Notes under the pieces: generated by a model
The model's input: only the letters and a program-made list of their open reading frames with translations
Database searches by the model: none
Told to the model about the DNA's origin: nothing
Assembly (NCBI GenBank): GCA_036507075.1
Contig: DASXQR010000079.1
Location: forward strand, 1-16,568
Length of the DNA: 16,568 bases
Direction: 5' to 3'
DNA from: Acidobacteriota bacterium
GTDB lineage: Bacteria > Acidobacteriota > UBA6911 > JACQSX01
Part shown: positions 1 to 16,568 of the stretch, in pieces
How the letters are laid out: each line of letters starts with the position of its first letter
Numbering within the stretch: position 1 is the first letter of the stretch
Position numbers and translations under genes: made by a program

Positions 1-18
1 GCCGCAACCAAAAGTCAA

Positions 19-89
19 GGAGAGACGGCCTGAGGGCCGTCTCTCTGCGGTGTCCTGCCAAGCTGAGACGGCCCTCAGGCCGTCTCTCC
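19..89. repeat. REP-doublet (REPIN-like) element: two inverted copies of a 25-bp GGAG-led palindrome
   Basis: GGAGAGACGGCCTGAGGGCCGTCTC (19-43) is the exact reverse complement of 65-89. Each copy is itself a hairpin (GAGACGGCC-4 nt loop-GGCCGTCTC). The spacer is 21 nt. Confidence 0.8.
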
Positions 90-161
90 GCTCCCGAATA
101 ATTTGCGCAGGCCGCGAAAATTCTCATGGTTAGTAGTACAGAGGACATCGAATACGGATTT

Positions 162-252
162 CGGAATGCGGAATGCGGAATATATCCAAGCTAACTTTTT
201 TAGCTGAGACCAAAATCCTTGCCAATTCCGCATTCCCGCATTCCGCATTCCG
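162..252. repeat. Inverted tandem-repeat element, 7-mer GGAATGC/GCATTCC
   Basis: CGGAATGCGGAATGCGGAAT (162-181) and ATTCCGCATTCCCGCATTCCGCATTCCG (225-252) are inverted arms around a 43-nt spacer. Confidence 0.85.
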
Positions 253-254
253 TT

Positions 255-313
255 CACGACCACGACCACGTCCAACGTCCACCGGTGACGGCCACGTCTA
301 CGATAACGTCTAC
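255..313 (+). repeat. Degenerate 6-mer tandem array (CACGAC/CACGTC-type)
   Basis: CACGACCACGACCACGTCCAACGTCCAC...GACGGCCACGTCTACGATAACGTCTAC. A related array lies at 9905-9970. Confidence 0.7.
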
Positions 314-319
314 CCTACG

Positions 320-349
320 TTGACACTCCGGCGCTCTCTCTGGTAAGTT
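320..349 (+). promoter_or_regulatory. Sigma70-type promoter for tRNA-Val / thrS
   Basis: TTGACA (320-325), 18-nt spacer, extended -10 TGG-TAAGTT (341-349), about 30 nt upstream of the tRNA. Confidence 0.7.
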
Positions 350-379
350 CAATGTTTTCTGTACAGTGCGAGTTCGTTT

Positions 380-454
380 AGGTGCGTAGCTCAGGGGGAG
401 AGCACTTCCTTGACACGGAAGGGGTCAGCGGTTCAAATCCGCTCGCACCTACCA
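380..454 (+). tRNA. tRNA-Val(GAC)
   Basis: Acceptor stem AGGTGCG/CGCACCT, D arm TAGCTCAG..GAGAGC, anticodon stem CTTCC/GGAAG with loop TTGACAC (GAC at 412-414), T loop GGTTCAAATCC, encoded CCA end. Confidence 0.97.
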
Positions 455-461
455 AGGAAGC

Positions 462-519
462 AAAAATCACCACCCGAACAGGCAGAGGCGCTTTTTGCCG
501 TTCTGGTGGTGATTTTTTT
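462..519 (+). terminator. Long hairpin with T-tract after the tRNA (putative intrinsic terminator or processing stem)
   Basis: AAAAATCACCACC (462-474) pairs with GGTGGTGATTTTT (505-517). The inner stem is GAAC..GGCA/TGCC.GTTC and the hairpin ends in a T7 run. Confidence 0.6.
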
Positions 520-627
520 CGCTCCTGAATTACTGCGAAGGCCGGAGGCCGCCGCGAAAGGTTTTTGCGCTGCTCCTTCAGCAGAATTCTTGATCCGATG
601 ACCAGTGATTGATGACCGATAACCAGA

Positions 628-2439
628 ATGCCTGATCGTATCGTAGAAATTATTCATCGGGACAATACCAGGGAGCAGATTTCGAATCCCGAGCGCCAGC
701 TTGAGGTACTGCGGCACAGTACTGCCCACCTGATGGCCCTGGCCGTAACAGATCTGTTTCCGGAAGTGCATCTCGGGATCGGTCCCCCAACCAGCGAAGG
801 CTTTTTCTACGACTTCGAGAGAGCGAAGGCGTTCACGCCCGAGGACTTGGAGCGCATCGAATCGCGTATGTCCGACTTTGCGCGGCAGGATCTGCCTTTC
901 CGTCCCTTTATTATCACCGTTGACGAGGCTGTGAAGATGTTCGCGGCGATGGACGAACGTCTCAAGGTCGAGTTGATACGCGACCGGGCCGATCAGATGC
1001 TGTCCGTCTACGAACTGGGTAAATTCACCGATTTCTGCATCGGCCCCCATCTTCTCAGCACCGCCCAGATCGGCGCCTTCAAGCTTCTTAGCGTTGCGGG
1101 AGCCTATTGGAAGGGCGATGAAAAGCGCGAACAGATGCAACGCATTTACGGCACAGCCTTCTTCAACCAGGAAGAGTTGAAGGAACATGTCCGGCGGTTG
1201 GAGGAAGCGCGAAAAAGGGATCACCGCCGCGTCGGACGTGAGCTCGATCTTTTCAGCATTCAGGAAAGCGCTGCGCCCGGACTGATCTTCTGGCATCCCA
1301 AGGGAGCCAGGATTCGTTCCGTAATCGAGGAGTTTCTGCGTGACGAACACGAGCGCCGGGGCTATCAATACGTCTACACACCGCACATCGCAAGAAACGA
1401 CCTTTGGAAGACCTCCGGACACTATGACTACTATCGGGAAAACATGTACACGCTCCAGGTTGAGGAAGAGGAGTATGTGCTGAAGCCGATGAACTGTCCG
1501 GGGCACATTCTGATCTACAAATCCGACATGCGCAGTTACCGCGACCTGCCGCTTCGCTATGCCGAATTCGGGACGGTCTATCGATACGAACGGTCCGGCA
1601 CCCTTCATGGGATGTTGCGCGTACGAGGTTTCACCCAGGACGATGCCCACCTGTTTTGCACTCCCGAGCAGGTTTATGGCGAAATTGTGCAGGCCATGGA
1701 CCTGGCTGAGGTTGTGCTGAGGACCTTCGGCTTCGAGAAATATCGTGTGGACCTGTCGGTTCGCGACCCGAAAAAGCCGCAGGATTACGCCGGGACTCCC
1801 GAGGAGTGGGATTTCGCCGAGTCAAATCTTGCCAGAGCCCTGAATGAACGAGCCTGGCAATACCGCCGGATGGAGGGTGAAGCGGTGTTCTACGGGCCCA
1901 AAATCGACTTGAAGCTGGTAGATGCCATCGGAAGAGAATGGCAGGCGACCACCATTCAGTTCGATTTCACTCTACCCCGCAGGTTCAATATCACCTATAT
2001 CGGACCCGATTCGAAGGAGCATACGGTTTACATGATTCATCGAGCGCTGCTCGGTTCGATGGAGCGCTTCTTTGGAGTGCTGATCGAGCACTATGCCGGC
2101 GCTTTTCCCTTGTGGCTCGCCCCGATACAGGCCACAGTGATTCCGATCAGTGAAAAGCATCACGCTTATGCCTCAGAATTGAACACCCGGCTGACACAAT
2201 CCGGGATCCGCGCGGCGGTGGATGATCGCAACGAAAAGATGGGTTACAAGATCCGGGAGGCGCAGTTGCAGAGAATTCCCTTCATGCTGGTTGTGGGGGA
2301 CAGGGAGGCGCAGTCAGGAACTGTATCTGTGCGAAGCCGGTCCGATGGTGATCTGGGGTCTCGAAGCATTGAAGATTTGGTACACTCTATTCGGCAGCTT
2401 GATGCCAGACGCTCCCTGGACCTGGAGATCAGCAAGTAA
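628..2439 (+). CDS. thrS: Threonine--tRNA ligase (short form, no N-terminal TGS domain)
   Basis: Editing-domain motifs RHSTAH and DFCIGPH, RDHR, catalytic motifs KPMNCPGH, YRYERSG, RVRGFTQDDAH, FYGPKID, HRALLGSMERF, and a C-terminal anticodon-binding domain (KIREAQ). Confidence 0.98.
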   Translation: MPDRIVEIIHRDNTREQISNPERQLEVLRHSTAHLMALAVTDLFPEVHLGIGPPTSEGFFYDFERAKAFTPEDLERIESRMSDFARQDLPFRPFIITVDEAVKMFAAMDERLKVELIRDRADQMLSVYELGKFTDFCIGPHLLSTAQIGAFKLLSVAGAYWKGDEKREQMQRIYGTAFFNQEELKEHVRRLEEARKRDHRRVGRELDLFSIQESAAPGLIFWHPKGARIRSVIEEFLRDEHERRGYQYVYTPHIARNDLWKTSGHYDYYRENMYTLQVEEEEYVLKPMNCPGHILIYKSDMRSYRDLPLRYAEFGTVYRYERSGTLHGMLRVRGFTQDDAHLFCTPEQVYGEIVQAMDLAEVVLRTFGFEKYRVDLSVRDPKKPQDYAGTPEEWDFAESNLARALNERAWQYRRMEGEAVFYGPKIDLKLVDAIGREWQATTIQFDFTLPRRFNITYIGPDSKEHTVYMIHRALLGSMERFFGVLIEHYAGAFPLWLAPIQATVIPISEKHHAYASELNTRLTQSGIRAAVDDRNEKMGYKIREAQLQRIPFMLVVGDREAQSGTVSVRSRSDGDLGSRSIEDLVHSIRQLDARRSLDLEISK

Positions 2440-2513
2440 TCCCGGGGGCCCGTGCGTCCTTTTCCCCGCTTTAGGGCATGGGGACTCCGGGAATATTAGA
2501 TAAAGGAGGCTCT

Positions 2514-3071
2514 ATTAAGGATCGAACACGAGTGAATGAGGCCATCCGCGCCCGTGAGGTAAGGGTTGTGGACGAGGATGGAGGGCAGTTGGGGATTATG
2601 GACCCCCGAAAAGCCCAGCAGATTGCTGAGGAGAGGGGACTTGATCTGGTGGAGGTGGCGCCTACGGCAAATCCCCCGGTCTGCCGGATAATGAATTTCG
2701 GCAAGTACCAATACCAGCAAAGCAAGAAGGCTGCCGATTCGAAAAAGCATCAGAAGAGCATTCACGTCAAAGAGATCAAGTTCCGACCCAGGACAGACGA
2801 GCACGATTACCAGTTCAAGAAGAACAACATCATTCGTTTTCTGCAGGACGGAAATAAGGCGAAGGCTACCGTGGTCTTTCGGGGCCGCGAAAACGCGCAC
2901 ACGGAAATAGGCCGGCGAATGCTGGACAGGCTCGTTTCCGATCTGAATGATTACGCCGAAGTGGAACGCGAGCCAAAGCTTGAAGGAAATCAGTACATTG
3001 TAATTTTAGGCCCGAAGGCTGAAGTGAAGGGGCGCCTGCAGAAAGCGCGGGCACCGCAGCCACGGGTCTAA
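2514..3071 (+). CDS. infC: Translation initiation factor IF-3 (probable ATT start)
   Basis: RVNEAIRAREVRVV, LDLVEVAP..PPVCRIMNFGKY, VKEIKFRP, FRGRE. A strong SD (AAGGAGG, 2503-2509) precedes an in-frame ATT at 2514. Confidence 0.96.
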   Translation: MKDRTRVNEAIRAREVRVVDEDGGQLGIMDPRKAQQIAEERGLDLVEVAPTANPPVCRIMNFGKYQYQQSKKAADSKKHQKSIHVKEIKFRPRTDEHDYQFKKNNIIRFLQDGNKAKATVVFRGRENAHTEIGRRMLDRLVSDLNDYAEVEREPKLEGNQYIVILGPKAEVKGRLQKARAPQPRV

Positions 3072-3084
3072 AAAGACAAAAACT

Positions 3085-3241
3085 TGAACCGCCAAGAACG
3101 CCAAGAACGCTAAGCTTATGAAGGGGCTCTCCCGTTGGAGTGTGCAGATGCTTCTCTTCAGGTAAAGTGAATTAGCAATAGGGACCGATGGCGCCAGGCT
3201 GAAGAAAAACTCTTAGCGTTCTTGGCGTTCTTTGCGGTTCA
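3085..3241. repeat. Inverted-repeat element with 9-mer (GCCAAGAAC) arms
   Basis: TGAACCGCCAAGAACGCCAAGAACGCTAAG (3085-3114) matches the reverse complement of 3212-3241 at 29/30. The unique spacer is 97 nt. Confidence 0.9.
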
Positions 3242-3266
3242 GTTTTTTTGAGATCAGGAGAACAAG

Positions 3267-3461
3267 GTGCCCAAATTAAAGACCAAAAAAGCCGCCGCCA
3301 AGCGCTTCAAGGTGACTGGCAGCGGACGGATCAAACGGCGCAGCAATTTTGCGCGTCACATTTTGACGAAGAAATCGGCTAAGAGGAAGCGCCAGCTTGG
3401 GTCAAGCAAGCTTGTGAGCAAGGCGGACGAAAATCGAGTACGTGAGATGCTTGGTCTCTAA
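3267..3461 (+). CDS. rpmI: 50S ribosomal protein L35
   Basis: [32 protein letters not shown] start after SD AGGAG; lies between infC and rplT. Confidence 0.97.
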
Positions 3462-3482
3462 CTACTCAGGAGCAAGGGAAAA

Positions 3483-3842
3483 ATGCCTCGCGTTAAACGT
3501 GGAACGAAAAGACTGTTAAAGAGAAAGAAAATCCTGTCCCGGGCCAAGGGCTACTGGGGTACGAAGAGCAAGCTTCATCGCTCTGCAAAAGAGGCTGTGG
3601 ACCGGGCGCTGAACTATGCCTATCGGGATCGCAGGGCGAAAAAACGCAACTTCCGGTCTCTTTGGATTGTGCGCATCAGCGCTGCCGCCAAATCGAACAA
3701 TCTGTCCTACAGCAAATTCATGTTTGGATTGAAAAAGGCCGGTGTCGGGCTGGATCGCAAAATGCTGGCCGACATTGCGGCGACCGATCCAACCGCTTTT
3801 AAAAGCCTGGCAGAAACCGCCTCCAAGGCTCTGAACGCCTGA
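3483..3842 (+). CDS. rplT: 50S ribosomal protein L20
   Basis: [43 protein letters not shown]. Confidence 0.98.
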
Positions 3843-3942
3843 TTTGCGATCGTATCCGGCGCCATAATCGCAAGCATCAGATTTCCAAAAAAGAAAGCGG
3901 AACCGCGACCAGGCGCTGCTTGCATTCATGTAAATTGGGTAG

Positions 3943-3988
3943 CTTGGTGCCTTGGTGGTTAAAAGGTATGAACCACCAAGACACCAAG
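3943..3988. repeat. Short inverted repeat with 8-mer (CTTGGTGN/NCACCAAG) arms
   Basis: CTTGGTGCCTTGGTGGTT (3943-3960) and AACCACCAAGACACCAAG (3971-3988) are complementary at 17/18, with a 10-nt loop. Confidence 0.85.
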
Positions 3989-4003
3989 TCGGACTTTCCA
4001 CTG

Positions 4004-5026
4004 ATGATTGAAGCCGACCAAATCCTTGACGAGTTCCGGAAAGAATTTGCCTCGGTCCGTAATTTGGACCAGTGGAACCAGGTACGCGACCGTTACCTTA
4101 GCCGCGAACGGGGCTTGCTTTCCAACCTCCTGAAGTCTATCGGCAAACTTCCGCCAACCGAACGCCCGGCCGCCGGTAAGCGTCTGAACGAGATCAAGCA
4201 TCAGATTGAGACAGAGCTCGATGGGCACCTCCTGCTCATCAAGAACGAAGAAACAAAAGAAAGAATGGAGCGCGAGCGCATCGATATCACGCTTCCGGGA
4301 TATCGATATCCCCTGGGCCTGCGACACCCATTGCGCTCGGTGCAGGAAGAGCTGGAGACCATCTTCGTCAAGATGGGCTTTACGGCCATGATCGGGCCCG
4401 AAATCGAGCATGATTACTACAACTTTGAAGCGCTGAATATTCCGCCCGAGCACCCGGCGCGCGCTGATCAGGATAGTTTTTACATCAGCGAACAGATGTT
4501 GCTTCGAACGCATACTTCTCCGGTGCAGATCCGGACCATGGAAAAGCTGCAGCCGCCCATCCGCATCATCTGTCCGGGGCGCGTGTTTCGCCGTGATGCG
4601 CCCGATGCCACGCACTCTCCCATGTTTCACCAGATCGAAGGTTTGGTGGTGGATGAGGGCATTACCATGGCGGATCTAAAGGGCACGCTGGAGTTTTTTT
4701 TGCGTGAACTGTTTGGTTCGGAGACCCGTGTTCGGTTCCGTCCCGGATACTTTCAGTTTGTCGAACCGGGAGCAGAAGTGGATATCAGTTGCTCGTTTTG
4801 CGGCGGCCGGGGGTGCCGGGTGTGCAAACAAAGCGGCTGGATTGAAATTCTCGGGGCGGGCATGGTCCATCCCAACGTCTTCAAGTTTGTGAATTACGAT
4901 TCGGAGCGCTTCACCGGCTTCGCCTGGGGAGTGGGGATCGAACGGGTCACGCAATTGAAATACGACATTGACGACATCCGCCTGTTCTTCGAGAACGACC
5001 TCAGATTCTTGCAGCAATTTGGTTAG
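4004..5026 (+). CDS. pheS: Phenylalanine--tRNA ligase alpha subunit
   Basis: IDITLPG, HP, NFEALNIPPEHPAR, LLRTHTSPVQIR, PGRVFRRD, THSPMFHQIEG, FVEPGAEVD, GWIEILGAGMVHP, GFAWGVGIER. The ATG 4004 start is preferred because upstream codons run through a repeat; the exact start is uncertain. Confidence 0.97.
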   Translation: MIEADQILDEFRKEFASVRNLDQWNQVRDRYLSRERGLLSNLLKSIGKLPPTERPAAGKRLNEIKHQIETELDGHLLLIKNEETKERMERERIDITLPGYRYPLGLRHPLRSVQEELETIFVKMGFTAMIGPEIEHDYYNFEALNIPPEHPARADQDSFYISEQMLLRTHTSPVQIRTMEKLQPPIRIICPGRVFRRDAPDATHSPMFHQIEGLVVDEGITMADLKGTLEFFLRELFGSETRVRFRPGYFQFVEPGAEVDISCSFCGGRGCRVCKQSGWIEILGAGMVHPNVFKFVNYDSERFTGFAWGVGIERVTQLKYDIDDIRLFFENDLRFLQQFG

Positions 5027-5195
5027 TGGTCCGTTGTCAGTAGTCCGTTGTCCGCCGTTCGTCGGTAGTATGAAGTCGAAAGTCGTGACGACCGCAACCT
5101 TCGACTTTCCGAGCTTCGACCTTCGACTTTCCGACCTTCGACGGACCACGGACTACTGACAACGGACAACGGACTACTGACAACCGACTACTGAC
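5022..5195. repeat. Nested inverted tandem-repeat element between pheS and pheT (outer 7-mers AACGGAC/TACTGAC, inner 7-mers GTCGAAA/TTCGACC)
   Basis: 5022-5054 is complementary to 5163-5195 at 30/33. The inner GAAGTCGAAAGTCG (5072-5085) faces an array of TTCGACY units (5098-5142). Confidence 0.9.
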
Positions 5196-7226
5196 ATGAA
5201 AATAAGCTACCTCTGGCTTCGCGACTACATCGAACTGGATGCCTCACCCGAGGAGCTGCGCGATGCCTTGTCGTCTGTGGGTCTGGTTGTGGAGTCCTTG
5301 AGTTCCATCGAGGATGATGTCGTTTTGAATATCGAGATTCCTTCGAATCGCCCCGATTGTCTCAACCACGGGGGGATCGCAAGAGAGCTTTCCGCCATCT
5401 ACGATCGTGATCTGAAGCCGCCGTCCCCGGCGCAGCAAACGGGCAGCGAGAAATTCTCCATCAGAATCGAAGACCCGGATCTTTGCCGCCGGTACTCCGG
5501 ACAGGTAATCCGCGGCGTGAAAATCAAGAGCTCGCCGCCCTGGATGCAGAAACGCCTCGCTGCGGTGGGACAGCGACCGATCAATAACATCGTCGACGTA
5601 ACAAATTATGTGCTTCTGGAGTTGGGGCACCCGCTGCACGCTTTCGATTTGGACCGTCTCAAGGGTCCGGAAATCATCGTGCGGCGAGGGCGTGCGGGCG
5701 AGGTGCTCCGGACTCTGGACGGGGTGGAGAGGAAACTAGACCATCAGAAGCTTGTAATCGCGGACCGCGAAAACGCGGTGGCACTGGCCGGGATCATGGG
5801 CGGCGAATCGAGCGAGATTTCCGCCGCCAGCACTAATTTGCTGATCGAAAGCGCCTATTTTGACCCGGTTTGTATCGGTCGTGCCGCGCGTGATTATCAG
5901 ATGCGAACAGAAGCCTCCCATCGGTTTGAGCGTGGGGCCGATCTGGCAGCGACCGTTTTGGCCCTGCAGCGCTGCGTCGAGTTGATACTGGAGTTGGCAG
6001 GCGGGAGCGCGGCTACCGGGGTGATTGATGTATTTCCGAAACCGGCGGGGCCGCTCTTTGTTTCTGTCCGGAAGGAGAGAATGAAGTTGTACGCGGCGAC
6101 CGAAGTGCCGGATAAGTTTGTTGTTTCCACGCTGCAGCGGCTTGGGTTCAAAGTTGAGGCATCAGGCCGGAAGGGTTGGAAGGCACAGGTTCCCAGTCAT
6201 CGAATCGACATCTCGCTGGAAGAAGATCTGATCGAAGAAGCGGTGCGGCATTATGGCTACGACAAGATCCCCTCATCGCTTCCCGCGTGGAGGGGAAAGG
6301 GGGACCTGCTTCCGGAAACCAGGCGCCGGCTCAGCCTGGCGCAGTTGTTTCGGTCGATTGGCTATAGCGAGGCGATGAACTGGACGTTCATGGATCCCCA
6401 GATCCATGCGGCTTTCGGCTATGAACAGTTGCCCGTGGCGCTGAAGAATCCTCTTTCCGAAGACGCTTCGCAATTGCGCACGCACTTGATTCCCAATCTG
6501 GCGCTGGCTGCGCGACACAATCAAAACCACGGGCAGGACTCGATACGTTTGTTTGAAATCGGCAAGACGTTCAGCCGCAGCAGCGCCGGGGAGACCGTGG
6601 AGCGGGAGCACGCAGCCTGGGTGGCAATGGGTCCTCAGGGCCGCAAATACTGGACCCAGATCGAAGACCCTCTGAATTATTTTTATATGAAGGGCGTGCT
6701 GGAGCAGATCAGCCATGCCCTGTCGGCTGAAGTGCCCGAACTGAAATCTGCATCTTTGCCGTTTCTGAACCCGGCGCAGTCCGCCGACATCATCGAGGGG
6801 GGCCGCGTTGTGGGATGCATCGGCTGCCTGCATCCGCAACTGCAGGAGTCACTCAAGATCCAGGACGATCTGTTCCTGGGCGAGGTTGATCTGGGCGCGC
6901 TGGAGGGAAGAACACAGCGGGCTCTTCTTTATGTGCCTATTGGGCGATTTCCTCGTGTGTTTCGCGACTTTTCATTTTTGGTCGACCAAACTGTCCCTTT
7001 TGCGGAATTACGCCAGTATATTTCAAGGCAGAAGATCGAAGATTTGAGGCAGGTGGAACTGATCGACCTGTATCGCGGCAGCCGGCTTCCTCCGGGAAAG
7101 ATCAGCCTGGCCATCAGGCTGTTCTTTGAGAACCCGGAAAGAACCCTTACCGATGAAGAAGTGGAGGCGGCGCGAGATCAGATCGTTGAAGGCCTGCGAA
7201 GGGAATTCGGCGTCATCCCCAGGTGA
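5196..7226 (+). CDS. pheT: Phenylalanine--tRNA ligase beta subunit (short form lacking the B2 OB-fold)
   Basis: MKISYLWLRDY, NRPDCL..GIAREL, RPINNIVDVTNYVLLELGHPLHAFD, LAGIMGG, SHRFERG, R.DI..EEDLIEE..RHYGYD, LFEIG, and a C-terminal FDX-ACB domain (RTLTDEEV). Confidence 0.97.
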   Translation: MKISYLWLRDYIELDASPEELRDALSSVGLVVESLSSIEDDVVLNIEIPSNRPDCLNHGGIARELSAIYDRDLKPPSPAQQTGSEKFSIRIEDPDLCRRYSGQVIRGVKIKSSPPWMQKRLAAVGQRPINNIVDVTNYVLLELGHPLHAFDLDRLKGPEIIVRRGRAGEVLRTLDGVERKLDHQKLVIADRENAVALAGIMGGESSEISAASTNLLIESAYFDPVCIGRAARDYQMRTEASHRFERGADLAATVLALQRCVELILELAGGSAATGVIDVFPKPAGPLFVSVRKERMKLYAATEVPDKFVVSTLQRLGFKVEASGRKGWKAQVPSHRIDISLEEDLIEEAVRHYGYDKIPSSLPAWRGKGDLLPETRRRLSLAQLFRSIGYSEAMNWTFMDPQIHAAFGYEQLPVALKNPLSEDASQLRTHLIPNLALAARHNQNHGQDSIRLFEIGKTFSRSSAGETVEREHAAWVAMGPQGRKYWTQIEDPLNYFYMKGVLEQISHALSAEVPELKSASLPFLNPAQSADIIEGGRVVGCIGCLHPQLQESLKIQDDLFLGEVDLGALEGRTQRALLYVPIGRFPRVFRDFSFLVDQTVPFAELRQYISRQKIEDLRQVELIDLYRGSRLPPGKISLAIRLFFENPERTLTDEEVEAARDQIVEGLRREFGVIPR

Positions 7227-7233
7227 CAAGATG

Positions 7234-7359
7234 ATTTGCCACGAAGGCCGGGGATTCATCTAGAAGTGGCACTCAGGCACAAGTGGTCGAAGGGGCAGCA
7301 GGAAATTCCACGTCTAGTTCAACATGGAACCTTCGCGTCTTCGTGTCTTCGTGGCAAAT
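7234..7359. repeat. Inverted-repeat element with an 8-mer (CTTCGYGT) arm
   Basis: ATTTGCCACGAAG (7234-7246) and CTTCGTGGCAAAT (7347-7359) form a perfect 13-bp inverted repeat. The right arm is CTTCGCGT-CTTCGTGT-CTTCGTGG. GTGGCAAATT is repeated at 7367-7376. Confidence 0.8.
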
Positions 7360-7398
7360 TCTGTTTGTGGCAAATTTCCTTCTGCGACGGAAATCCTG

Positions 7399-7404
7399 TA
7401 TAAT
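7399..7404 (+). promoter_or_regulatory. Possible -10 box for zapB-zapA
   Basis: Perfect TATAAT 18 nt upstream of the proposed GTG start; the -35 is weak (TTCCTT). Confidence 0.4.
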
Positions 7405-7422
7405 CACGCCGATCAGAACGAC

Positions 7423-7686
7423 GTGTCCGAGAAAGATTCGATCCGAGAGTCCTTTTTGGAGTTGAAGAGGCGACTGCAGCAGTCGATCGAACTTTTTCAG
7501 TCAGTAAAGAAAGAAAACGCGCAACTGCGGGAAAGGGTTGCCCGGCTGGAAGCTGAGTTGGATGATATGTCGGCATCCGGCATCAGGCGCGAAGTTGCGA
7601 AACTTTTAGACGAAAGGAAGCTGGTTCGGGACAAAGTGCAAAGGATTCTGGAAAACATTTCACATCCGGAGTCCGGAAAAGTGTAG
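7423..7686 (+). CDS. zapB: Coiled-coil cell division protein, ZapB-like
   Basis: An 87-aa heptad-rich protein (LKRRLQQSIELFQSVKKENAQLRERVARLEAEL..ERKLVRDKVQRIL) directly upstream of zapA. GTG 7423 was chosen because the ORF-track start at 7324 reads through a repeat. Confidence 0.7.
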   Translation: MSEKDSIRESFLELKRRLQQSIELFQSVKKENAQLRERVARLEAELDDMSASGIRREVAKLLDERKLVRDKVQRILENISHPESGKV

Positions 7687-7724
7687 GGCGGCTGCAAGCC
7701 GCTCCGCGCTTCCGGAGCACTGAC

Positions 7725-8018
7725 ATGGAAGGTTCTGACACAGGTCTGACAAAGGTAAGAATTTTGGATCAGATTTACCATGTGCGGAGTGCCGACGATC
7801 CTGCTTATGTTCGGGAGCTGGCTGAGTATGTGGACCGCAAGCTCCAGCAGATTTCCGACAGCACTCCCTCGGTAGACACTCTCAAAGTTGCCATTCTGGC
7901 TGCTCTCAACATTGCCGATGAGCTGTTTCGATTGCGAAAGGCTGAGCAAGAAGATCAACGCTGGTTCGGCGACGAACTGCGCGAGTGCTCTTTGATGCTG
8001 GAAGAATTAAACAGATAG
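7725..8018 (+). CDS. zapA: Cell division protein ZapA
   Basis: VRILDQIYHV..YVRELAEYVDRKL..KVAILAALNIADELF; SD GGAG at 7714-7717. Confidence 0.93.
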   Translation: MEGSDTGLTKVRILDQIYHVRSADDPAYVRELAEYVDRKLQQISDSTPSVDTLKVAILAALNIADELFRLRKAEQEDQRWFGDELRECSLMLEELNR

Positions 8019-8029
8019 AGAGTGAAGTC

Positions 8030-8057
8030 TTGACCGTGTCGGAAAAGCGCATATAAT
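8030..8057 (+). promoter_or_regulatory. Sigma70 promoter for 6S RNA / rny
   Basis: TTGACC (8030-8035), 16-nt spacer, TATAAT (8052-8057), about 7 nt before the predicted RNA 5' end. Confidence 0.75.
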
Positions 8058-8064
8058 GCTGGCT

Positions 8065-8247
8065 GAAGCCCCTGCGACGTTTGTGAATGACATATTTTAT
8101 TTGAGTCTTTCCTTGTTTGAAGGGGTGCCTGAGTCTTTGCGTGGTGTGTGAGTCTCCGATGCGAGATTCCCTAAAGCGCTAAGCAGGGCGCCCACCTGGT
8201 TGCCAGGATTCAAATAAAGGTGAGTCACACGGCGGAGCGGGGGATTC
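8065..8247 (+). ncRNA. ssrS: 6S RNA
   Basis: A rod of about 183 nt. The closing stem is GAAGCCCCTGC/GCGGGGGATTC. Further stems TTTATTTGAGTC (8096-8107)/GATTCAAATAAA (8207-8218) and GGGGTGCCTG (8122-8131)/CAGGGCGCCC (8184-8193) flank a central bubble. It sits in the typical position downstream of zapA. Confidence 0.88.
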
Positions 8248-8295
8248 ACCCTTCCTGTTACTTCCTTCCCGAAACCCTTCCTGTTGGAGTCCATC

Positions 8296-9858
8296 ATGGT
8301 TACGGCAGGACTGGTAACTCTTACGGTCCTGATTCTGATTCTCGGCGTTGTCGCATTTTTCATCGCCAAGCGCAAGCTGATCGATCAGAACCTGGCCCGC
8401 GCAAGAGCCGAAGCAGACAAGCTGGTCCATACGGCCCGCGAAGACGCGGAAAAGCTGAAGAAAGAAAAACTGCTCGAGGCCAAGGAGGAGGTTTTCGGCC
8501 TGAAGTCCGATTTTGACCAGCAGCTTCGCGACGGCAAGAAGGAGTTGGGAGCGCTGGAGAAACGCCTCACCCAGAAGGAAGAAAACCTGGAAAAGCGCGA
8601 GATCGCCATCCTTTCAAAAGAGAAAGACCTCGAAAGGACATCCGCTGAAACTGTCCGGCGTGAAAAGGCCGTGGAACTGCTGGAACAAAAGCTGAACTCG
8701 CTTATTTCCACTGAACTCCAGAACCTGGAGCGCATCTCTTCCATGACGTCCGAGGATGCCAAAAAGCAGTTGCTCAAGAACCTGGAAGCCGACGCGATGC
8801 GTGAAAGTACGCTGATGGTCAAGCGCATCGAAGACCAGGCGAGGGAAGTGGCGCAGCGGGAAGCCAGAAAAATTATCGTCCAGGCGATCCAGCGCTGCGC
8901 GGCCGAGCACGTAGTGGAATCCACGGTTTCGGTGGTCGACCTTCCCAATGAGGAAATGAAAGGGCGAATCATCGGACGCGAGGGTCGGAACATCCGCGCC
9001 CTGGAGCAGGCTACCGGCGTCGATTTGATTGTCGACGATACTCCGGGCGCCATTATTCTTTCCGGTTTCGACCCGGTGAGACGCGAGGTGGCGCGCATAG
9101 CGATCGAGCAATTGCTCGACGACGGTAGGATCCATCCGGCACGCATCGAGGAAGTGGTGGGCAAGGCGCGAACCGAGCTGGAGGGCAGAATATTGCATGA
9201 GGGAGAGGTCGCCGCGTTTGAAGTGGGGATCCACGATTTTCATCCGGAGATTCTAAAAATGCTGGGGCGGCTCAAATATCGCACCAGCTACGGCCAGAAT
9301 GTGCTCCATCACTCGATTGAAGTGGCTTATCTGTGCGGGATCATGGCGGCCGAATGCCGGGCCGATGCCTCGGTGGCCAAGCGCGCCGGTCTGGTGCACG
9401 ACATCGGAAAAGCGGTGGACCGTGAAATAGAAGGAACACACATCCAATTGGGCGTGGAAATGTTGCGCAAGTTCGGGGAGAGTCCGGAAGTGGTGCACGC
9501 GATGGAATGCCATCATTTCGACGTGGAGTTTCGCACCCTGGAGGCGGTTTTGGTCCAAGCTGCCGATGCGATCTCTGCGGCGCGCCCTGGAGCGCGCCGC
9601 GAAATTCTGGAGAGCTATGTCAAGCGCCTCGAGAAACTGGAAGCGCTGGCCGAGTCATTCAGCGGAGTGGCCAAAGCATTCGCCCTTCAGGCTGGACGCG
9701 AGATCCGCATCATTGTGGAGAGCAGCAAGGTTTCCGACGAGCAGGCGCTCTGGCTTACCAAAGACATCACAAAGAAGATCGAGAGTGAGCTGCAGTATCC
9801 GGGACAGATCAAAGTGACCGTAATCCGCGAAATGAGAGTGGTGGATTACGCCAAGTGA
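8296..9858 (+). CDS. rny: Ribonuclease Y
   Basis: N-terminal TM helix, coiled coil, KH domain (MKGRIIGREGRNIR), HD domain (RTSYGQNVLHHS..LVHDIGK), ADAISAARPGAR, QAGREIR, YPGQIKVTVIRE. SD GGAG at 8286-8289 precedes ATG 8296. Confidence 0.98.
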   Translation: MVTAGLVTLTVLILILGVVAFFIAKRKLIDQNLARARAEADKLVHTAREDAEKLKKEKLLEAKEEVFGLKSDFDQQLRDGKKELGALEKRLTQKEENLEKREIAILSKEKDLERTSAETVRREKAVELLEQKLNSLISTELQNLERISSMTSEDAKKQLLKNLEADAMRESTLMVKRIEDQAREVAQREARKIIVQAIQRCAAEHVVESTVSVVDLPNEEMKGRIIGREGRNIRALEQATGVDLIVDDTPGAIILSGFDPVRREVARIAIEQLLDDGRIHPARIEEVVGKARTELEGRILHEGEVAAFEVGIHDFHPEILKMLGRLKYRTSYGQNVLHHSIEVAYLCGIMAAECRADASVAKRAGLVHDIGKAVDREIEGTHIQLGVEMLRKFGESPEVVHAMECHHFDVEFRTLEAVLVQAADAISAARPGARREILESYVKRLEKLEALAESFSGVAKAFALQAGREIRIIVESSKVSDEQALWLTKDITKKIESELQYPGQIKVTVIREMRVVDYAK

Positions 9859-9861
9859 AGA

Positions 9862-10012
9862 TTCACCCGGAGGGCACAGCCCGGCGAAGCCGCAACCAAG
9901 AAAAGCCGACGACGGCCACGTGCACGTGCACGTCAACGAGAGACGTCAACGACCACGTCAACGCTCACGAAAAAAAGTCGCAAGTCCGCCTTCTTTGTGT
10001 CTTTGTGGTGAA
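9862..10012. repeat. Compound repeat element: degenerate outer IR (TTCACC../..GGTGAA), GCCGCAACCAA motif, inner CACGTC-type 6-mer array
   Basis: The right end is CTTTGTGT-CTTTGTGG-TGAA (8-mer). GCCGCAACCAA at 9889-9899 is identical to 1-11. GACGGCCACGT at 9911-9921 is identical to 287-297. Confidence 0.7.
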
Positions 10013-10021
10013 ATTCCCCTG

Positions 10022-10798: not shown

Positions 10799-10804
10799 AT
10801 ACTT

Positions 10805-10909
10805 GTCATTGGTCATTTCACTACCAGCTGACGCGCGCGGTTCGGCTGGTAGTGAAATGATCAATAACCAATGACGAATGACCAATGACCGATGACGAGT
10901 GAGCGATGA
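10805..10909. repeat. 27-bp stem hairpin with a 7-mer (CAATGAC) tail between convergent genes; possible bidirectional terminator
   Basis: 10805-10831 pairs with 10842-10868 (24/27 Watson-Crick, 2 G-U). It is followed by degenerate CAATGAC units up to the uvrA stop. Confidence 0.8.
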
Positions 10910-13801
10910 TCAGTCTCCCAGGTAACTTCGCAGATAGCGCCCGGTGTAGGAGTTCTCGCTGCGCGCGACATTTTCCGGCCTTCCCACCGCGACGATTTCG
11001 CCGCCCCGATCTCCGCCCTCCGGCCCCAGATCAATAATCCAGTCGGCCGATTTGATCACATCCAGGTTGTGCTCAATGACAACCAGTGAAGCGCCTTCCC
11101 TGATCAGTCGGTCAAACGCCTTCAGCAGTTTATTGATGTCATCGAAGTGCAGGCCGGTGGTGGGTTCGTCGAAAATGAAGAGCGGCTTTTTGGAAGTCCT
11201 CTTGATCAGAAATGAGGCCAGCTTGATTCGCTGCGCTTCTCCGCCGCTCAGCGTCGTCGAGGATTGACCGAGACGCAGGTATCCGAGACCGACTTCATCG
11301 AGAACCTTCAGTTTCTTGACCAGTTGAGCATGGCTGGAAAAGAACAGCACCGCTTCACGCACGGTCATATTCAAAACTTCATGGATGTTTTTGCCGCGAT
11401 ACATGACCTCAAGAACGGACTGTTTGAATCGCGTTCCCTTGCATTCTTCGCAAGTCAGCTCCACATCGGCCAAAAACTGCATCTCCACGGTGACGCTTCC
11501 CGATCCTTCACACACTTCGCATCGCCCTCCCGGGACGTTGAACGAAAAGTGACCGGGTGTGAAATTTCGCGAGGCTGCTTCGCGAGTGGAGGCAAAAATG
11601 TGCCGGACTTCATCGAACGCCTTAATGTAAGTAATTGGATTGGAGCGTGGCGTTTTTCCGATGGGAGACTGATCGACCATCAAAACCTCAGTAACCAGCT
11701 TTCCCCCTGCCACTTCGTCATGCAGGCCGACCGCGTCCTTCCATTCTCCCTTTTGCCTTTTCAGTTCGGCGTAAATGATGTCATGCACCAGTGTGGATTT
11801 GCCGCTGCCGGAGACGCCGGTTATGCAGACCATCATGTTTAGAGGGATCCGAACATCCAAACCTTTCAGATTGTGCTGCCGTGCGCCGCGGATCAGTAAT
11901 TCCTGGCCGTTGCTCTGGCGGCGGAACACGGGAGTGGCGACGCGCAATTCTCCCTTCAGATAGCGTGCGGTCAACGAGCTGGGACTTTGCAGCAGGGATG
12001 CGTAGTCTCCCTGGTGGATGATTTCGCCTCCCGCCTCACCCGCTCCCGGTCCCATGTCGATGATGTGGTCAGCAGCCTCCATCATTTCTTTGTCGTGCTC
12101 GACAACCAGGACTGTGTTGCCGGCGCTGCTGAGCTTCTTCAGTATGTCGATCAACCGGTTGCTGTCGCGTGAATGCAGGCCGATGCTCGGCTCATCGAGC
12201 ACGTAGAGTGCTCCCACCAGCGAAGACCCGAGCGCGGTGGCAAGTTGGATGCGCTGCGCTTCGCCGCCGCTCAACGTCGAGGTGAGACGGTCCAGCGAGA
12301 GATAATCAAGACCGACGCGCAGCAGAAAATCGAGGCGCGAGCGGATCTCGCGTATCAGGCGGTCGGCCACTGCGTGCTCCATGTCGGTCAGCTCCAGTGA
12401 GTCGAAGAACCGGGCGGCATCGCGAATCGTCATCGCCGTGACCTGGGTGATGCGCTTGCCGTTCAGATAAACATCGAGCGCTTCGCGCCGCAACCGCTCA
12501 CCCCCGCACTCACTGCACAGCGTATAGCCGCGATAACGGCTGATCAGGATGCGGACATGGATTTTGTATTTCTTTGTTTCCAGATAATCGAAAAACCCGA
12601 GTATGCCCGGGAACTTTCCTTCGCCTTCGTAGATCCAGCGCTGCTGTTCTTCAGACAGATCGCAGTAACGTTTATTGACGTCGATGTTCTTCCTGGCGGC
12701 CCAGTCCCTGAGCTTTTTCTGGAAGTTGCGATAACGCGGGCGTTTCCAGGGATCGATCGGATCTTGCGCGATCGACAGCGTCGGGTCGGGAATAATCCGG
12801 CCCAGATCCAGGTTTATGGTGTTGCCAAACCCCTGGCACACCGGACAGGCTCCGTACGGATTATTGAATGAAAAAAGCCTGGGCTCCGGCACTTTGTAGA
12901 GCAGCCCGCACGAAGAGCATTCGAAGCGCTGGCTGAAACGAAGCAGTTGAAGTTGCTGAGGCTCGCCGGCGCCTGCCACGGCGCGGGCGTTCAGTTTGTC
13001 GGGGAGGTCTCCAGGATCTGCAAAGAAGATCTCCGCCAGTCCGTTTCCCTCGCGGAAGCACAGCTCCAGGGAATCGGATAATCGCTGGCGCTCGGAATAC
13101 TCGATTTGTAATCGATCCACCACCACACGGATGTCAGCCAGGTCCACCTGCACGCGTGGCGCCGAGTCGAGATCCTGGATCTCTCCGTTCTTGAAAACCC
13201 TTCGGAAGCCCTGCTTTTTCAAATTATCGAAAACAAGAGCGCTCGAGGTGCTTTCACCCCCGGGCCCGCTCGACTCTGAAAGAAGGTCGAAGGCGCTTCC
13301 TCGCAGCGGGAACAGGGCATAGATGCGCCTTCCCGCAGCTTGCATCAGCAGATCAACAGTGCTGTCAACCGAGTCAGCTTTCACGAGGCGCCCGCATCGG
13401 CGACAGATCGTTCGTCCAATCCGGGCGTAGGCCAGCCGCAGAAAATCGTAAATCTCGGTAACCGTGCCGACCGTGCTGCGCGGATTGCGCGAAGTGTTCT
13501 TCTGGCGAATAGCGATAGCCGGACTGATTCCGAGAATTTCGTCTACTCGGGGCTTTTCCATTCGCTCCAGAAACTGCCGGGCATAGGCGGACAGCGACTC
13601 GACATAACGGCGCTGCCCTTCCGCGTAAAGGGTGTCAAATGCCAGGCTGGACTTTCCGGACCCGGAAACACCGGTGACCACGGTCAGCTTATTGTTCGGA
13701 ATATCGCAGGAGATCCCCTTCAGATTGTGGACCCGGGCGCCGCGAATGGAGATGCATTCCGGCGAGAAGTTGGGAGCGGCAGCGGTTACCAGTTTTCTCA
13801 T
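10910..13801 (-). CDS. uvrA: Excinuclease ABC subunit A
   Basis: GARVHNLK, two Walker A motifs [38 protein letters not shown], two LSGGEAQRI signatures, [16 protein letters not shown], CxxC zinc fingers. ATG 13801 is preferred over 14041, which lies in a repeat. Confidence 0.97.
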
Positions 13802-13876
13802 AACAGCGTACAAGATCCAGCCAAACCCGCCGTGCAGGCCGCACAGCAGGATTTCCTGTACCTGGTCAAAAGATCC

Positions 13877-13906
13877 AGTGTAAGGGAGGGAGGAGGCGAA
13901 CTTCAA
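13877..13906 (-). promoter_or_regulatory. Sigma70-type promoter for uvrA
   Basis: Minus strand: TTGAAG (13906-13901), 18-nt spacer, TACACT (13882-13877). Confidence 0.6.
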
Positions 13907-13917
13907 GAGCGGGGGTT

Positions 13918-14062
13918 TGGGGATTGAGGGATGGAGGGATGGAGGGACGGAGGGATGGAGGGACTGAGAGATTGAGTGACTGAGAGCCTCCATCTCTCCA
14001 TCTCTCCATCTCTCCATCTCTCCATCCCTCCATCTCTCCATCCCTCCATCTCTCCATCCCCC
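13918..14062. repeat. Inverted 8-mer tandem-repeat element (AGGGAYKG / CTCCATCY), copy A
   Basis: About 8 purine-rich units (13919-13987) are immediately followed by 9 CTCCATCY units (13988-14059). Confidence 0.92.
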
Positions 14063-14091
14063 TTGCCCGCCTTACGGTTCACTTGTATAGT
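14063..14091 (+). promoter_or_regulatory. Sigma70-type promoter, probably giving a leaderless mRNA
   Basis: TTGCCC (14063-14068), 17-nt spacer, TATAGT (14086-14091), then 7 nt to ATG 14099. Confidence 0.65.
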
Positions 14092-14098
14092 CGCGGCG

Positions 14099-15094
14099 AT
14101 GGCTGCGTTTCACATCACACAGACTAATCCGAAGGTGATGCTGGCGGGCGGACTGACACAACTGCTTACCGCGGGTCTGGATGCCGGCGGAGGTGATATC
14201 GAAGTTCGATTCGATTCACAGCCTGCCCTGGTGGTGGGAGCCTCGTCTCGTGTGACGCTGGTTCGCGTACCCGACGTGCAGGGCGAATGCGCCATCACGA
14301 TTTCTCAGGGTGGGAAAACCTCCGCGCCGTTTCCGATCTACACGGGAGAGATCCTGGCTACCGAGCTGAATCCGGTCAGCAATCCTGCTACTGACAGGCA
14401 CGGCAATATCTTCGTCGCTTTCAGCGGCTCTCGCGGAGCCACAGTTCCATTTTCGGTCTATCGGATTCTGGCGGGCAGCGGACAAAAGGAACCGTTTCTG
14501 GCTGACATCGTCAATGCCACAGGAATCGTCGTCGCCCCGGACGACACCATTTACATCTCCAGTCGCCATACCGGCACGGTCTACAAATCAGACCTTCATA
14601 AGAACGTGGAGAAGGTGGCTGAAAACCTTGGCATCGCGACAGGGATGGCGCTGGATCCCGGCGGAAATCTCTATGTGGGGGACCGCAGCGGGTTGATCCA
14701 TAAGATCCATCCCGGAGGCAAAGACGAAGTGGTTTGTGAAATCGAGCCCAGCGTCTCGGCGTTTCACCTGGCTTTGCGTAAGGATGGAAAACTGTTTGTC
14801 ACCGGCCCGACACTGGCGACGCAGGACAACATTTATGAAATCGGGTCAGACAGGCAGCCGAAGATTTTTTTTCATGGCTTCGGGAGGCCGCAGGGAATCG
14901 CTTTTGACGGGAAAAGGTTGCTGGTAACAGGAAGCTATCAGGGACGACGGGGGGTATTCGCAGTCTCCGATGACAAGAAGGTCGAACAACTGGTTGCCAG
15001 CCCGATCCTCGTCGGGCTGGCAATCGCTCCCAACGGCGACTTGATTCTCGCCGACTCGATCTCGCTTTATCGCGTGCCGGCCGGTAAATGGTAA
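14099..15094 (+). CDS. IPT/TIG-like domain plus beta-propeller protein (SMP-30/gluconolactonase/NHL-like), function unknown
   Basis: An N-terminal Ig-like segment (ITQTNPKVMLAGG..EVRFD..LVRVP) is followed by repeated propeller blades (ATGIVVAPDDTIYIS, ATGMALDPGGNLYVGD, PQGIAFDG, VGLAIAPNGDLILAD). Confidence 0.75.
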   Translation: MAAFHITQTNPKVMLAGGLTQLLTAGLDAGGGDIEVRFDSQPALVVGASSRVTLVRVPDVQGECAITISQGGKTSAPFPIYTGEILATELNPVSNPATDRHGNIFVAFSGSRGATVPFSVYRILAGSGQKEPFLADIVNATGIVVAPDDTIYISSRHTGTVYKSDLHKNVEKVAENLGIATGMALDPGGNLYVGDRSGLIHKIHPGGKDEVVCEIEPSVSAFHLALRKDGKLFVTGPTLATQDNIYEIGSDRQPKIFFHGFGRPQGIAFDGKRLLVTGSYQGRRGVFAVSDDKKVEQLVASPILVGLAIAPNGDLILADSISLYRVPAGKW

Positions 15095-15109
15095 TGTGCC
15101 CGCGCGGTG

Positions 15110-15318
15110 TGGGGATTGAGGGACTGAGGGATTGAGGGACTGAGGGATTGAGGGATGGAGGGACTGAGGGACTGAGGAATGGAGGGACTGAGGGACTGAA
15201 GATTGAGAGATTGAGGAATTGAGTGACTGAGAGCGCGGTTCCCAAATCCCTCCATCCCTCCGTCCCTCCATCCCTCCATCCCTCCGTCCCTCCATCCCTC
15301 CCTCCATCCCTCCCTCCC
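15110..15318. repeat. Inverted 8-mer tandem-repeat element (AGGGAYKG / TCCRTCCC), copy B
   Basis: About 15 purine-rich units (15111-15234), a short spacer, then TCCATCCC/TCCGTCCC units (about 15247-15318). It lies between convergent genes. Confidence 0.92.
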
Positions 15319-15322
15319 GCTC

Positions 15323-16480
15323 TTAGGCGCGCGGTGTAAGAAAAGTCATCGCTGTTTCCCATAAAATCCTGGGCGCCGACCTTAAAATTCGCTGTTTTAG
15401 TCCTGCGTACCCTTGAGATCCGGCGATGTATTCGTTCTCGATCTTCCTCACTGTGGCGCTTCGTTCCGTAAAGGGAAGAAGCAATTCGGCGTAGCTCCAC
15501 TTCCACCTTGCGCCGGAATAGAACGCGGTTTTCAACCGTGACGATGCGGCAAGCTCTTCGCCGAAATCCTGCCGCCAAAGCGCATCAAATCCTTCCAATG
15601 TTTTTTCGTGAGCGAGCTGTGAAAGGAGCTGGGCAGCGCGCAGCGCAAAGTAAATTCCTTCGCCGGTTATGGCATCGACGAATCCGCCGGCATCGCCGAT
15701 CAGAGCCCAGTTGGAACCTGAGCAGCGGTTCGTTCGCAGCGTCGATTGTCGAAGTGTCGGCACCGTTGCCGCATAGATCCTTTCTTTCCCGGGAGGCAGC
15801 ATGTCGTAATAGCGGCGCAGGAAGTTATCGGCGTGCAGCCGTAGAGTTTTAGTTATCGGATGGTCTGCCGTGTGGATCACTCCAACACTACTGTGGTCGG
15901 GGCGCGGGAATGACCAGAGGTATCCTTGAAAACCTCGCGGAAGAAACTCCACGATAGCGCGCTGTGGGTGGAATTCTCCCGGCGCGTAGTATCCGAATGT
16001 CATCGACAAGTCGGCCAGCTCGAAAGGCCGGCTGCAGGCCGCGCGCACGCGGCTGTGACTGCCGTCGGCGCCGATCAGCCAGTCAAAACGAAAACTGACG
16101 TCACCCGCTTTGATCTCCCATCCGGATCCGCAGGCACGGATGTCTGTGACGTTGCGGTCTTCGATCGTGACACCCTGCGCCTCCGCTTGCTCGAGGAGAT
16201 AAGTGTCGGAGCAGGCCCGGGCAAAAATCTGGAAAGGAGCTTCCAAAGGAAGGATGACTCTTCTTTTACCCGAGATCAGCTCCAGTTCCTTTATGCAGGA
16301 TCGAGGGACGCCAGATTCGGCCAGCCTGCAGGCTTTCAGCGCGCGGGATGTGAAGCCTCCGCCGCATGCTTTTTCTCTTCCTCGTTTTCTTTCAAACAGG
16401 GTGACTTCAAGTCCCGTTTGGGATAGCAGGGCAGCCGCATGGCTTCCGGCCGGACCCCCGCCCACGATTCCGACTCTCAT
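15323..16480 (-). CDS. FAD-dependent oxidoreductase, geranylgeranyl reductase family
   Basis: N-terminal VGGGPAG..FER..KACGGG, LIGADG..SRV, GYLWSFP, LIGDAGGFVDAITGEGI. Confidence 0.88.
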   Translation of the reverse strand: MRVGIVGGGPAGSHAAALLSQTGLEVTLFERKRGREKACGGGFTSRALKACRLAESGVPRSCIKELELISGKRRVILPLEAPFQIFARACSDTYLLEQAEAQGVTIEDRNVTDIRACGSGWEIKAGDVSFRFDWLIGADGSHSRVRAACSRPFELADLSMTFGYYAPGEFHPQRAIVEFLPRGFQGYLWSFPRPDHSSVGVIHTADHPITKTLRLHADNFLRRYYDMLPPGKERIYAATVPTLRQSTLRTNRCSGSNWALIGDAGGFVDAITGEGIYFALRAAQLLSQLAHEKTLEGFDALWRQDFGEELAASSRLKTAFYSGARWKWSYAELLLPFTERSATVRKIENEYIAGSQGYAGLKQRILRSAPRILWETAMTFLTPRA

Positions 16481-16506
16481 GGATGGTATATTAACTCTGC
16501 GTTATA

Positions 16507-16555
16507 GGTTTGCGCGTTGCGGGTTTGCGCATTGCGCGTTGGGAAGTCGAAAGTC
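16507..16555. repeat. Degenerate TTGCGCG-type array plus GAAGTCGAAAGTC; probably one arm of another element cut by the window edge
   Basis: GGTTTGCGCGTTGCGGGTTTGCGCATTGCGCGTT. GAAGTCGAAAGTC at 16543-16555 is identical to 5072-5084. Confidence 0.55.
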
Positions 16556-16568
16556 CCACCAGCCTGGC

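Follow-up and report, generated by a model that had tools for sequence, protein, structure and literature searches.

Short intergenic hairpins built from inverted arms of tandem repeats punctuate a 16,568-nucleotide stretch of Acidobacteriota DNA (the window, which is the whole of contig DASXQR010000079.1 of assembly GCA_036507075.1, or C79 of genome G000, with both ends in repeats). The closest described systems are the REPtrons and REPINs (BIMEs) of repetitive extragenic palindromes (REPs), with their TnpA-REP/RAYT proteins. As described in passages of PMC8266576 and PMC6006769, these comprise one protein gene or a few, with inverted hairpin repeats on either side, together with hundreds of gene-less intergenic copies that have two inverted arms and a variable linker; several families occur per genome, each with its own protein, and no target duplication is found. 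The elements reported here are alike in all these respects. They are unlike REPs and REPINs in that the arms are tandem arrays of 6–9-mers with family-specific ends, not single palindromes with a GTAG/CGTC foot, and in that no HUH Y1 gene lies between tandem-repeat arms. From classical DDE MITEs (miniature inverted-repeat transposable elements) they differ in showing no target duplication above chance and no transposase gene in their filled, that is, gene-bearing, forms. They are not an ordinary REP or MITE family. On balance, we favour the interpretation that small gene cassettes gave rise to the window hairpins as non-autonomous, REPIN-like derivatives, which are moved in trans by non-HUH proteins co-expressed with competence genes.

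The cassettes also recall the Coxiella 23S rRNA intervening sequence (IVS), which, according to part of PMC4990558, has an S23p open reading frame (ORF) of the same protein family (PF05635), inverted termini and tandem heptamers before the ORF. The likeness concerns filled forms only, these being the ones with an S23p/four-helix-bundle ORF between inverted termini. Unlike the IVS, the filled cassettes, as well as the window elements, sit between protein genes and outside rRNA; the majority of copies are empty, another, unrelated cargo (the GxxExxY gene) has the same design, and filled copies carry their own box. The Xanthomonas GGGAATC and Nostoc heptamer repeats, treated as G-quadruplex candidates in the relevant passages of PMC4692102, are likewise intergenic heptamer arrays, often in convergent pairs near an upstream ORF, but most units here would be unable to form quadruplexes and are tied to cassette genes. 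Neither the cassette-plus-arms system nor the 38-bp box described below was found in the literature searched (subscription journals and supplements lay outside its scope), and the words 'competence' and 'promoter' are absent from the searched passages of PMC6006769.

Genome G000 (6.1 Mb in 233 contigs, 95.7% complete) contains eight matches to TIGR02436, the four-helix-bundle family, at seven loci and six matches to TIGR04256, the GxxExxY family. The cassettes have a common layout: left repeat arm, 38-bp box, small gene and right repeat arm. GxxExxY genes are flanked by inverted arms of the GCCAAGAAC, CACCAAG and CACAAAG types, four-helix-bundle genes by arms of the GTCCGTT, GTCATTG, GCAGGAG, GGGTTAC, CACGTC and GGGAGAG types, and the genes between tandem-repeat arms belong to PF05635 or PF13366. 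The first-pass annotation had named these two families as possible partners of the arms; genes of both do lie within arms of the same kinds, in G000 and in other phyla. Among homologous loci in GTDB genomes (the best 80 of 443 for the four-helix bundle and the best 80 of 540 for GxxExxY), inverted arms are present at 64 of the 77 scorable four-helix-bundle loci and 53 of the 69 GxxExxY loci, other phyla included, with units that are almost all 7-mers for the former and almost all 8-mers for the latter. Clades with good support in a 35-protein tree share a unit class, and one protein group with a common unit class spans several phyla; many forks of this tree are open.

All 11 cassette genes with intact upstream DNA have the oriented 38-bp box just inside the left arm, before the start codon. 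It consists of an A/T tract, TTCG(C/T)(A/G), a fixed spacer and C(A/G)GTT(A/T)(T/A)GT. A profile trained on these 11 sites found 58 sites in the genome at a score of at least 24, and a refined profile 60 sites at a score of at least 20; the reversed genome gave none in either case. TCG and GT are invariant in 57 sites, and conservation ends at 38 bp. The box precedes six of seven four-helix-bundle loci, five of six GxxExxY genes and 10 of 12 PF01797 (Y1/HUH) genes, the remaining two Y1 genes being cut by a contig end or truncated. Scanning of downstream ORFs (48 from 40 loci in Pfam, 30 in NCBIfam) revealed that 13 sites precede genes for DNA uptake or recombination: ssb, a ComEA-like HhH protein, a prepilin, recA, comM (YifB), radC, comF, comEC, recG, recQ, dprA, pcrA/uvrD and an ERCC4 nuclease. 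About 20 sites precede ORFs of no assigned function, remnants or no clear gene. Cassette genes and stand-alone Y1/HUH genes carry the same box as DNA-uptake and recombination genes in this lineage.

Competence regulons with dedicated promoters are familiar from the streptococcal ComX cin-box and the CRP-S sites of gamma-proteobacteria. The present arrangement is alike in that one box stands before comEA, comEC, comF, comM, dprA, ssb, recA, radC and pilin genes, and unlike in its sequence and in that hairpin-element proteins, or what is left of them, account for about half of its sites. It is this DNA-uptake-type box, common to cassette genes and competence genes, that is new; it places three gene types (four-helix-bundle, GxxExxY and Y1) under one box in one genome and defines a candidate competence regulon for an Acidobacteriota lineage, with about 60 boxes (for example at L028, dprA; L012, comM; and L020, comEC).

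The box is probably an alternative-sigma promoter for competence. It is non-palindromic, has fixed spacing and points toward gene starts; an ATG follows 5 nt after it at 11 of 60 sites and directly at its end at 10 of 60, spacings that would fit a promoter with short leaders. No sigma-70 consensus was found at the dprA box. The fixed spacing would also suit a recombination or insertion site, as would the position of the motif before many mobile genes and, in G002, before an integron-integrase-like gene just under the cut-off (L072, G002:C22; TIGR02249, 249.5 bits against 265); the right part of the box also resembles the integron GTTRRRY core. The motif nevertheless stands before the single-copy core genes recA, dprA, comM, comEC, recG and pcrA at a distance conserved across the class, is oriented to gene starts with no conserved flank past 38 bp, and changes from lineage to lineage in parallel in core and cassette genes, and we regard an insertion site as very improbable. 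An SOS (LexA) box was considered and rejected: the motif is non-palindromic and is absent before lexA and before the uvrA-like gene of the window.

The window carries tRNA-Val, thrS-infC-rpmI-rplT-pheS-pheT, zapB/zapA-like genes, 6S RNA, rny, ymdB, the uvrA-like gene and two more, several of these names having been assigned by sequence recognition. The nine inverted-arm sites listed in the first-pass annotation, and the tenth cut off at the contig end, are all present in the sequence, and all window elements are intergenic, as it had claimed. Eight of the nine fold with z-scores of -3.0 to -10.6 against 40 base-shuffles each; the other, 9862–10012, folds weakly because it is a composite with a nested half-element. 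Sampled words of window positions 1–10000 are present in two soil read runs at 0.97 and 0.95, one run possibly being the source. The elements are as follows.

1–88: GCCGCAACCA lead of the hexamer family (204 genome copies of the lead), then a REP-like palindromic doublet of GAGACGGCC type (core word in 196 genome copies), cut by the contig start; z -6.4.
157–252: empty element with GGAATGC 7-mer arms, the most abundant family (144 pairs); z -7.0.
255–310, plus strand: single CACGAC/CACGTC hexamer array, probably one arm of the hexamer family.
3085–3241: empty element between infC and rpmI with GCCAAGAAC 9-mer arms, the same as at the GxxExxY cassette G000:C83:12888; z -8.6.
3943–3988: 46-bp CTTGGTG/CACCAAG hairpin before pheS; this short hairpin also ends the GxxExxY cassette G000:C37:29182; z -7.0.
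5022–5195: element between pheS and pheT, overlapping the pheS stop codon and directly adjoining the pheT ATG, with outer GTCCGTT/GTCAGT arms, as at the four-helix-bundle cassette G000:C88:58582, and a nested GTCGAAA-type element at about 5070–5142; z -7.8.
7234–7359: empty element after pheT with CACGAAG 8-mer arms (GxxExxY type) and the internal family word GAAGTGGCACT; z -3.0.
9862–10012: composite element between rny and ymdB, with weak outer CACAAAG-type arms around a nested half-cassette; z -1.9.
9884–9990, plus strand: left arm of a CACGTC-type four-helix-bundle cassette and the first half of the 38-bp box (about 9969–9990), then truncated; from alignment.
10805–10909: element between the convergent ymdB and uvrA-like genes, with GTCATTG/CAATGAC arms, as at the four-helix-bundle cassette G000:C225:58781, and an inner short hairpin; z -6.6.
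13918–14062: empty element in a divergent gap with AGGGATGG 8-mer arms; z -10.6.
15110–15318: empty element in a convergent gap with AGGGA(T/C)(T/G)G 8-mer arms; z -7.4.
16507–16568, plus strand: left arm of GGGTTTGC type, cut by the contig end and resembling the GGGTTAC arms of the cassette G000:C73:6272.

Empty and filled forms share unit families, protein clades track unit classes, and deletion intermediates join the two forms. The half-cassette at 9884–9990 aligns with the left arm and half box of CACGTC cassettes in G000, G001 and G003, its partners being the filled cassettes L295, L296 and L038 and the box-bearing empties L025, L035 and L036. At C82:21434, arms and a full box are followed by a short stub like a four-helix-bundle start with the first codons kept, as judged by eye; at C192:81789 and C185:8154 hexamer arms surround the box and about 40 bp; at C167:36694 the box kept between hexamer arms is whole or decayed, other hexamer elements also contain decayed boxes, and at C57:18806 a left arm and box stand before a DUF7674 gene. 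A six-frame hidden Markov model scan of 1.7 Mb not taken up by long genes turned up no additional cassette remnants at the protein level. The earlier proposal that the elements are non-autonomous or empty forms is supported by these filled and intermediate copies.

Genome-wide analysis using Tandem Repeats Finder (score of at least 36) revealed 1145 arrays of 7-mers, 774 of 8-mers and 597 of 9-mers, compared with 1, 1 and 5 in a Markov control of non-coding DNA; the pattern extends across the genome. Only 43, 36 and 97 arrays of periods 7, 8 and 9 fall wholly within ORF calls, which were made by a script written for the present analysis and cover 80% of the genome. Arrays occupy 1496 of 3190 gaps of at least 40 bp. 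From 2722 non-coding arrays, 1458 form 729 inverted pairs, and the 707 pairs with a spacer of <300 bp constitute a population of short inverted tandem-repeat elements at about 116 per Mb; array pairs <300 bp apart are inverted in 722 instances versus direct in 67. Arm polarity is fixed, the commonest unit, GGAATGC, forming the left arm 144 times and appearing in the right-arm form 0 times. Within each unit family the ends are fixed and there is a typical unit order and spacer length (about 64 elements, inspected by eye), the spacer being about 42, 82, 95 or 13 bp in four families; spacer sequence drifts, unit number varies between copies and units are degenerate. Spacers match elsewhere in 222 of 377 cases, mostly as nested hairpin elements, and 29 element-in-element pairs were counted. 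The first-pass description, 'shared architecture without shared sequence', is accurate between unit families but not within a family, where termini, unit order and spacer length are common. The accompanying contrast with REP families is not supported either, since each unit family, with its constant ends and spacer length, behaves like a REPIN population. Classical REP-like doublets of several families (169–204 core-word copies) coexist and nest with the tandem-repeat elements, including at window 1–88.

The variable number and degeneracy of the units might suggest that the arrays form de novo, through slippage or templated synthesis, and become paired by gene conversion, with no relation to the cassettes; polymerase slippage is proposed for an excess of heptamers in part of PMC4692102. 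The strict arm polarity (144 versus 0), the constancy of termini and spacer lengths, and the box remnants inside empty elements all tell against this, and the deletion intermediates already largely refute it. Templated synthesis by a reverse transcriptase, raised in the first-pass annotation, finds no support either: G000 has two reverse transcriptase genes, neither with arms. We consider de novo origin extremely improbable.

Of 423 elements in co-directional gaps, 241 start within 20 nt of a stop codon. Such a position would fit if the hairpins were RNA-level elements, RNase III sites or mRNA stabilisers, under host selection with cassettes as their source, and the Coxiella IVS, with its S23p gene and tandem heptamers, is described as RNase III-excised in the passages of PMC4990558 cited above. 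Folding shows no strand preference, however: of 398 elements, the transcribed strand folds better in 195 and less well in 200 (p 0.84). Divergent gaps hold 101 elements and convergent gaps 150, and the RNA reading leaves spread unexplained. We think a primary role in RNA improbable; an RNA-level role may be a side effect.

The target duplications envisaged at the outset are not above chance: a duplication of at least 2 bp is absent in 213 of 225 elements with definable ends, compared with 204.7 in a shuffled-pair control, the ends used not being fixed by empty sites. Comparison of orthologous spacers in family-level relatives did show, as anticipated, spacers that are empty or hold other elements: between pheS and pheT, G002 has 2 bp and G001 a different element and unit, and the infC-rpmI spacer is short in both.

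We lean towards a role in trans for the cassette proteins, exerted on DNA and on hairpins of the matching unit. Each protein clade would recognise, in hairpin or single-stranded DNA, the repeat unit that belongs to it, and the cassette protein would help matching elements to be copied or moved in trans, with no target duplication; new copies would land mostly just after stop codons, often inside other hairpins. A ring-shaped pentamer could conceivably read a periodic repeat in the manner of TRAP on RNA, though this is an analogy only. Box-driven cassette proteins would be made in competence, while single-stranded DNA enters and recombines. Spread of the elements on incoming single-stranded DNA during transformation is a more tentative suggestion. 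Equally speculative is the wider idea of a transformation-coupled class of selfish or domesticated elements, in which three unrelated small proteins (an Avd-like four-helix bundle, a GxxExxY nuclease and Y1 HUH) are induced with the uptake machinery, act on hairpins in incoming single-stranded DNA and copy unit-matched repeat hairpins to new sites. If true, elements may spread as the cell takes up DNA; REP/REPIN-type spread would then have a trigger at the level of the host, and two large protein families without an assigned role would gain a function. The matched protein–repeat pairs supplied here bear on the spread of REP-type repeats, on the timing of expression of RAYT-like enzymes and on the roles of the TIGR02436 and GxxExxY families.

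The 12 Y1 matches of the genome, 10 of them with the same box, offer a different agent. HUH enzymes, according to passages of PMC8266576, cut and join single-stranded hairpins without target duplication, in agreement with the duplication test, and RAYT-like Y1 proteins might then move all the hairpin elements, with four-helix-bundle and GxxExxY genes as passengers or accessory factors between arms. The Y1 genes, though cassette-like in layout, have palindromic arms of their own and not tandem-repeat arms, and unit class follows the four-helix-bundle clade across many phyla; we judge this alternative unlikely.

The preferred agents of movement in trans, the two cassette proteins, are quite different from one another. 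The four-helix-bundle protein (S23p/Avd-like, PF05635) matches PDB entry 2GSC. The GxxExxY protein matches PF13366 (E 4.7e-42) and is a predicted PD-(D/E)XK nuclease: its model (predicted local distance difference test score 92.9) has a compact PD-(D/E)XK fold with the D and E-x-K intact, and in 59 sequences D81 is nearly invariant and E91, K93 and Q105 are invariant. The best matches of the model are Cas4 and restriction-type nucleases at a middling Z of 7.7; no sequence match was found in the PDB and no fold match clearly above background. The Q-x-x-x-Y motif of the model is of RecB/Cas4 type.

A strict pattern of the box has 41 hits in G000, 56 in G001, 39 in G003, four in G002, none in G004 and G005, and zero to two in each of 150 other genomes of the phylum. 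A looser, position-anchored match in 15 relatives found variants of the box before comM in 10 of 11, dprA in seven of 14, GxxExxY in 10 of 18 and four-helix-bundle genes in 16 of 24 cases, with 0 of 67 in the reversed control. Box variants differ by lineage, in step between core and cassette genes: 17 of 26 cassette boxes are closer to the comM/dprA box of their own genome than to that of any outside genome, five tie and four are closer to another, counts in which kin genomes are not independent. Some Y1 genes in G002, G004, G007 and G023 have the box, and most of the 23 listed outside G001 and G003 are without it. Coupling of cassettes to competence through the box is a lineage trait.

Several observations weigh against the proposed mobilisation in trans by competence-linked proteins. 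The scores of the 11 cassette sites are not independent, because those sites trained the profile. None of 34 sigma genes has a box in the 400 upstream bases, so that no sigma factor could be identified by self-regulation. Elsewhere, the box is present at only three of 157 homolog loci, all three labelled Acidobacteriota. Five other genomes, with Blastocatellia or Acidobacteriota labels, have it at 0 of 27 four-helix-bundle loci, and their cassettes have no word in common with their own comM/dprA upstream regions above a reversed control; at many box-less homolog loci the gene directly follows the arm. Given its absence from most homolog loci, competence coupling is not needed for cassettes in general. 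GGAATGC, the commonest unit, and AGGGATGG are without a filled copy in the 95.7%-complete assembly; GTCGAAA likewise lacks one there, and cassettes of G001 and G003 have GGATTGC and GTCGAAA-like arms. Two of the six box-bearing four-helix-bundle genes are frameshifted or stopped and one GxxExxY gene is truncated, which fits decay. The match between clade and unit could also follow from simple co-inheritance in cis, and the four-helix-bundle protein has no known catalytic site. Finally, the spacer comparison, being at family level with no same-genus genome, leaves no resolved empty site.

A candidate regulator of the box, and only a candidate, is the extracytoplasmic function (ECF) sigma/anti-sigma/CHAT locus beside recG and coaD. 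Locus L023 (G000:C17:63801-76000) comprises recG, an rsmD-like gene, a CHAT/TPR protein, a zf-HC2/TPR anti-sigma, an ECF sigma at C17:71854, an XRE regulator, a 79-aa ORF and coaD, and bears three strong boxes and a weak one. One box precedes the anti-sigma gene beside the conserved ECF sigma and is present there in only one of 11 other loci; a sigma–anti-sigma pair lies near coaD in most class relatives examined. Two filled cassettes, G000:C37:5024 and C152:80590, are divergent beside sigma-factor genes and a third (C199) is upstream of one, which may be chance. Box-preceded ORFs of no assigned function include one of 208 aa at C97:18558 (G001 has a similar ORF, also with a box), one of 294 aa at C48 and two paralogs of 124–128 aa at C28; these may be new DNA-uptake or recombination factors.

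Further associations were seen in relatives. About 10 copies of one identical box occur in G003, ahead of a Y1 gene in those that were read, a pattern that suggests an element carrying the box has expanded recently. Three relatives have a Y1/RAYT-like gene downstream of comM and on its strand, at G023:C1:2323008-2325042, G021:C17:8339-10359 and G004:C146:2848-5723. A GxxExxY fragment directly follows dprA in two relatives (G001:C383:8799-9997 and G003:C73:3250-4412) and a four-helix-bundle match directly precedes dprA in another (G205:C8:335262-336491), the two being reported in one open frame of 533 aa, possibly a fusion. In the window, tRNA-Val(GAC) at 380–454 and 6S RNA at 8066–8247 each have a canonical sigma-70-like promoter, as judged by eye. 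At L239, L255 and L256 (Akkermansiaceae/Verrucomicrobiota labels), the DNA upstream of the GxxExxY gene resembles, by eye, the end of pheS, where the window has an empty element.

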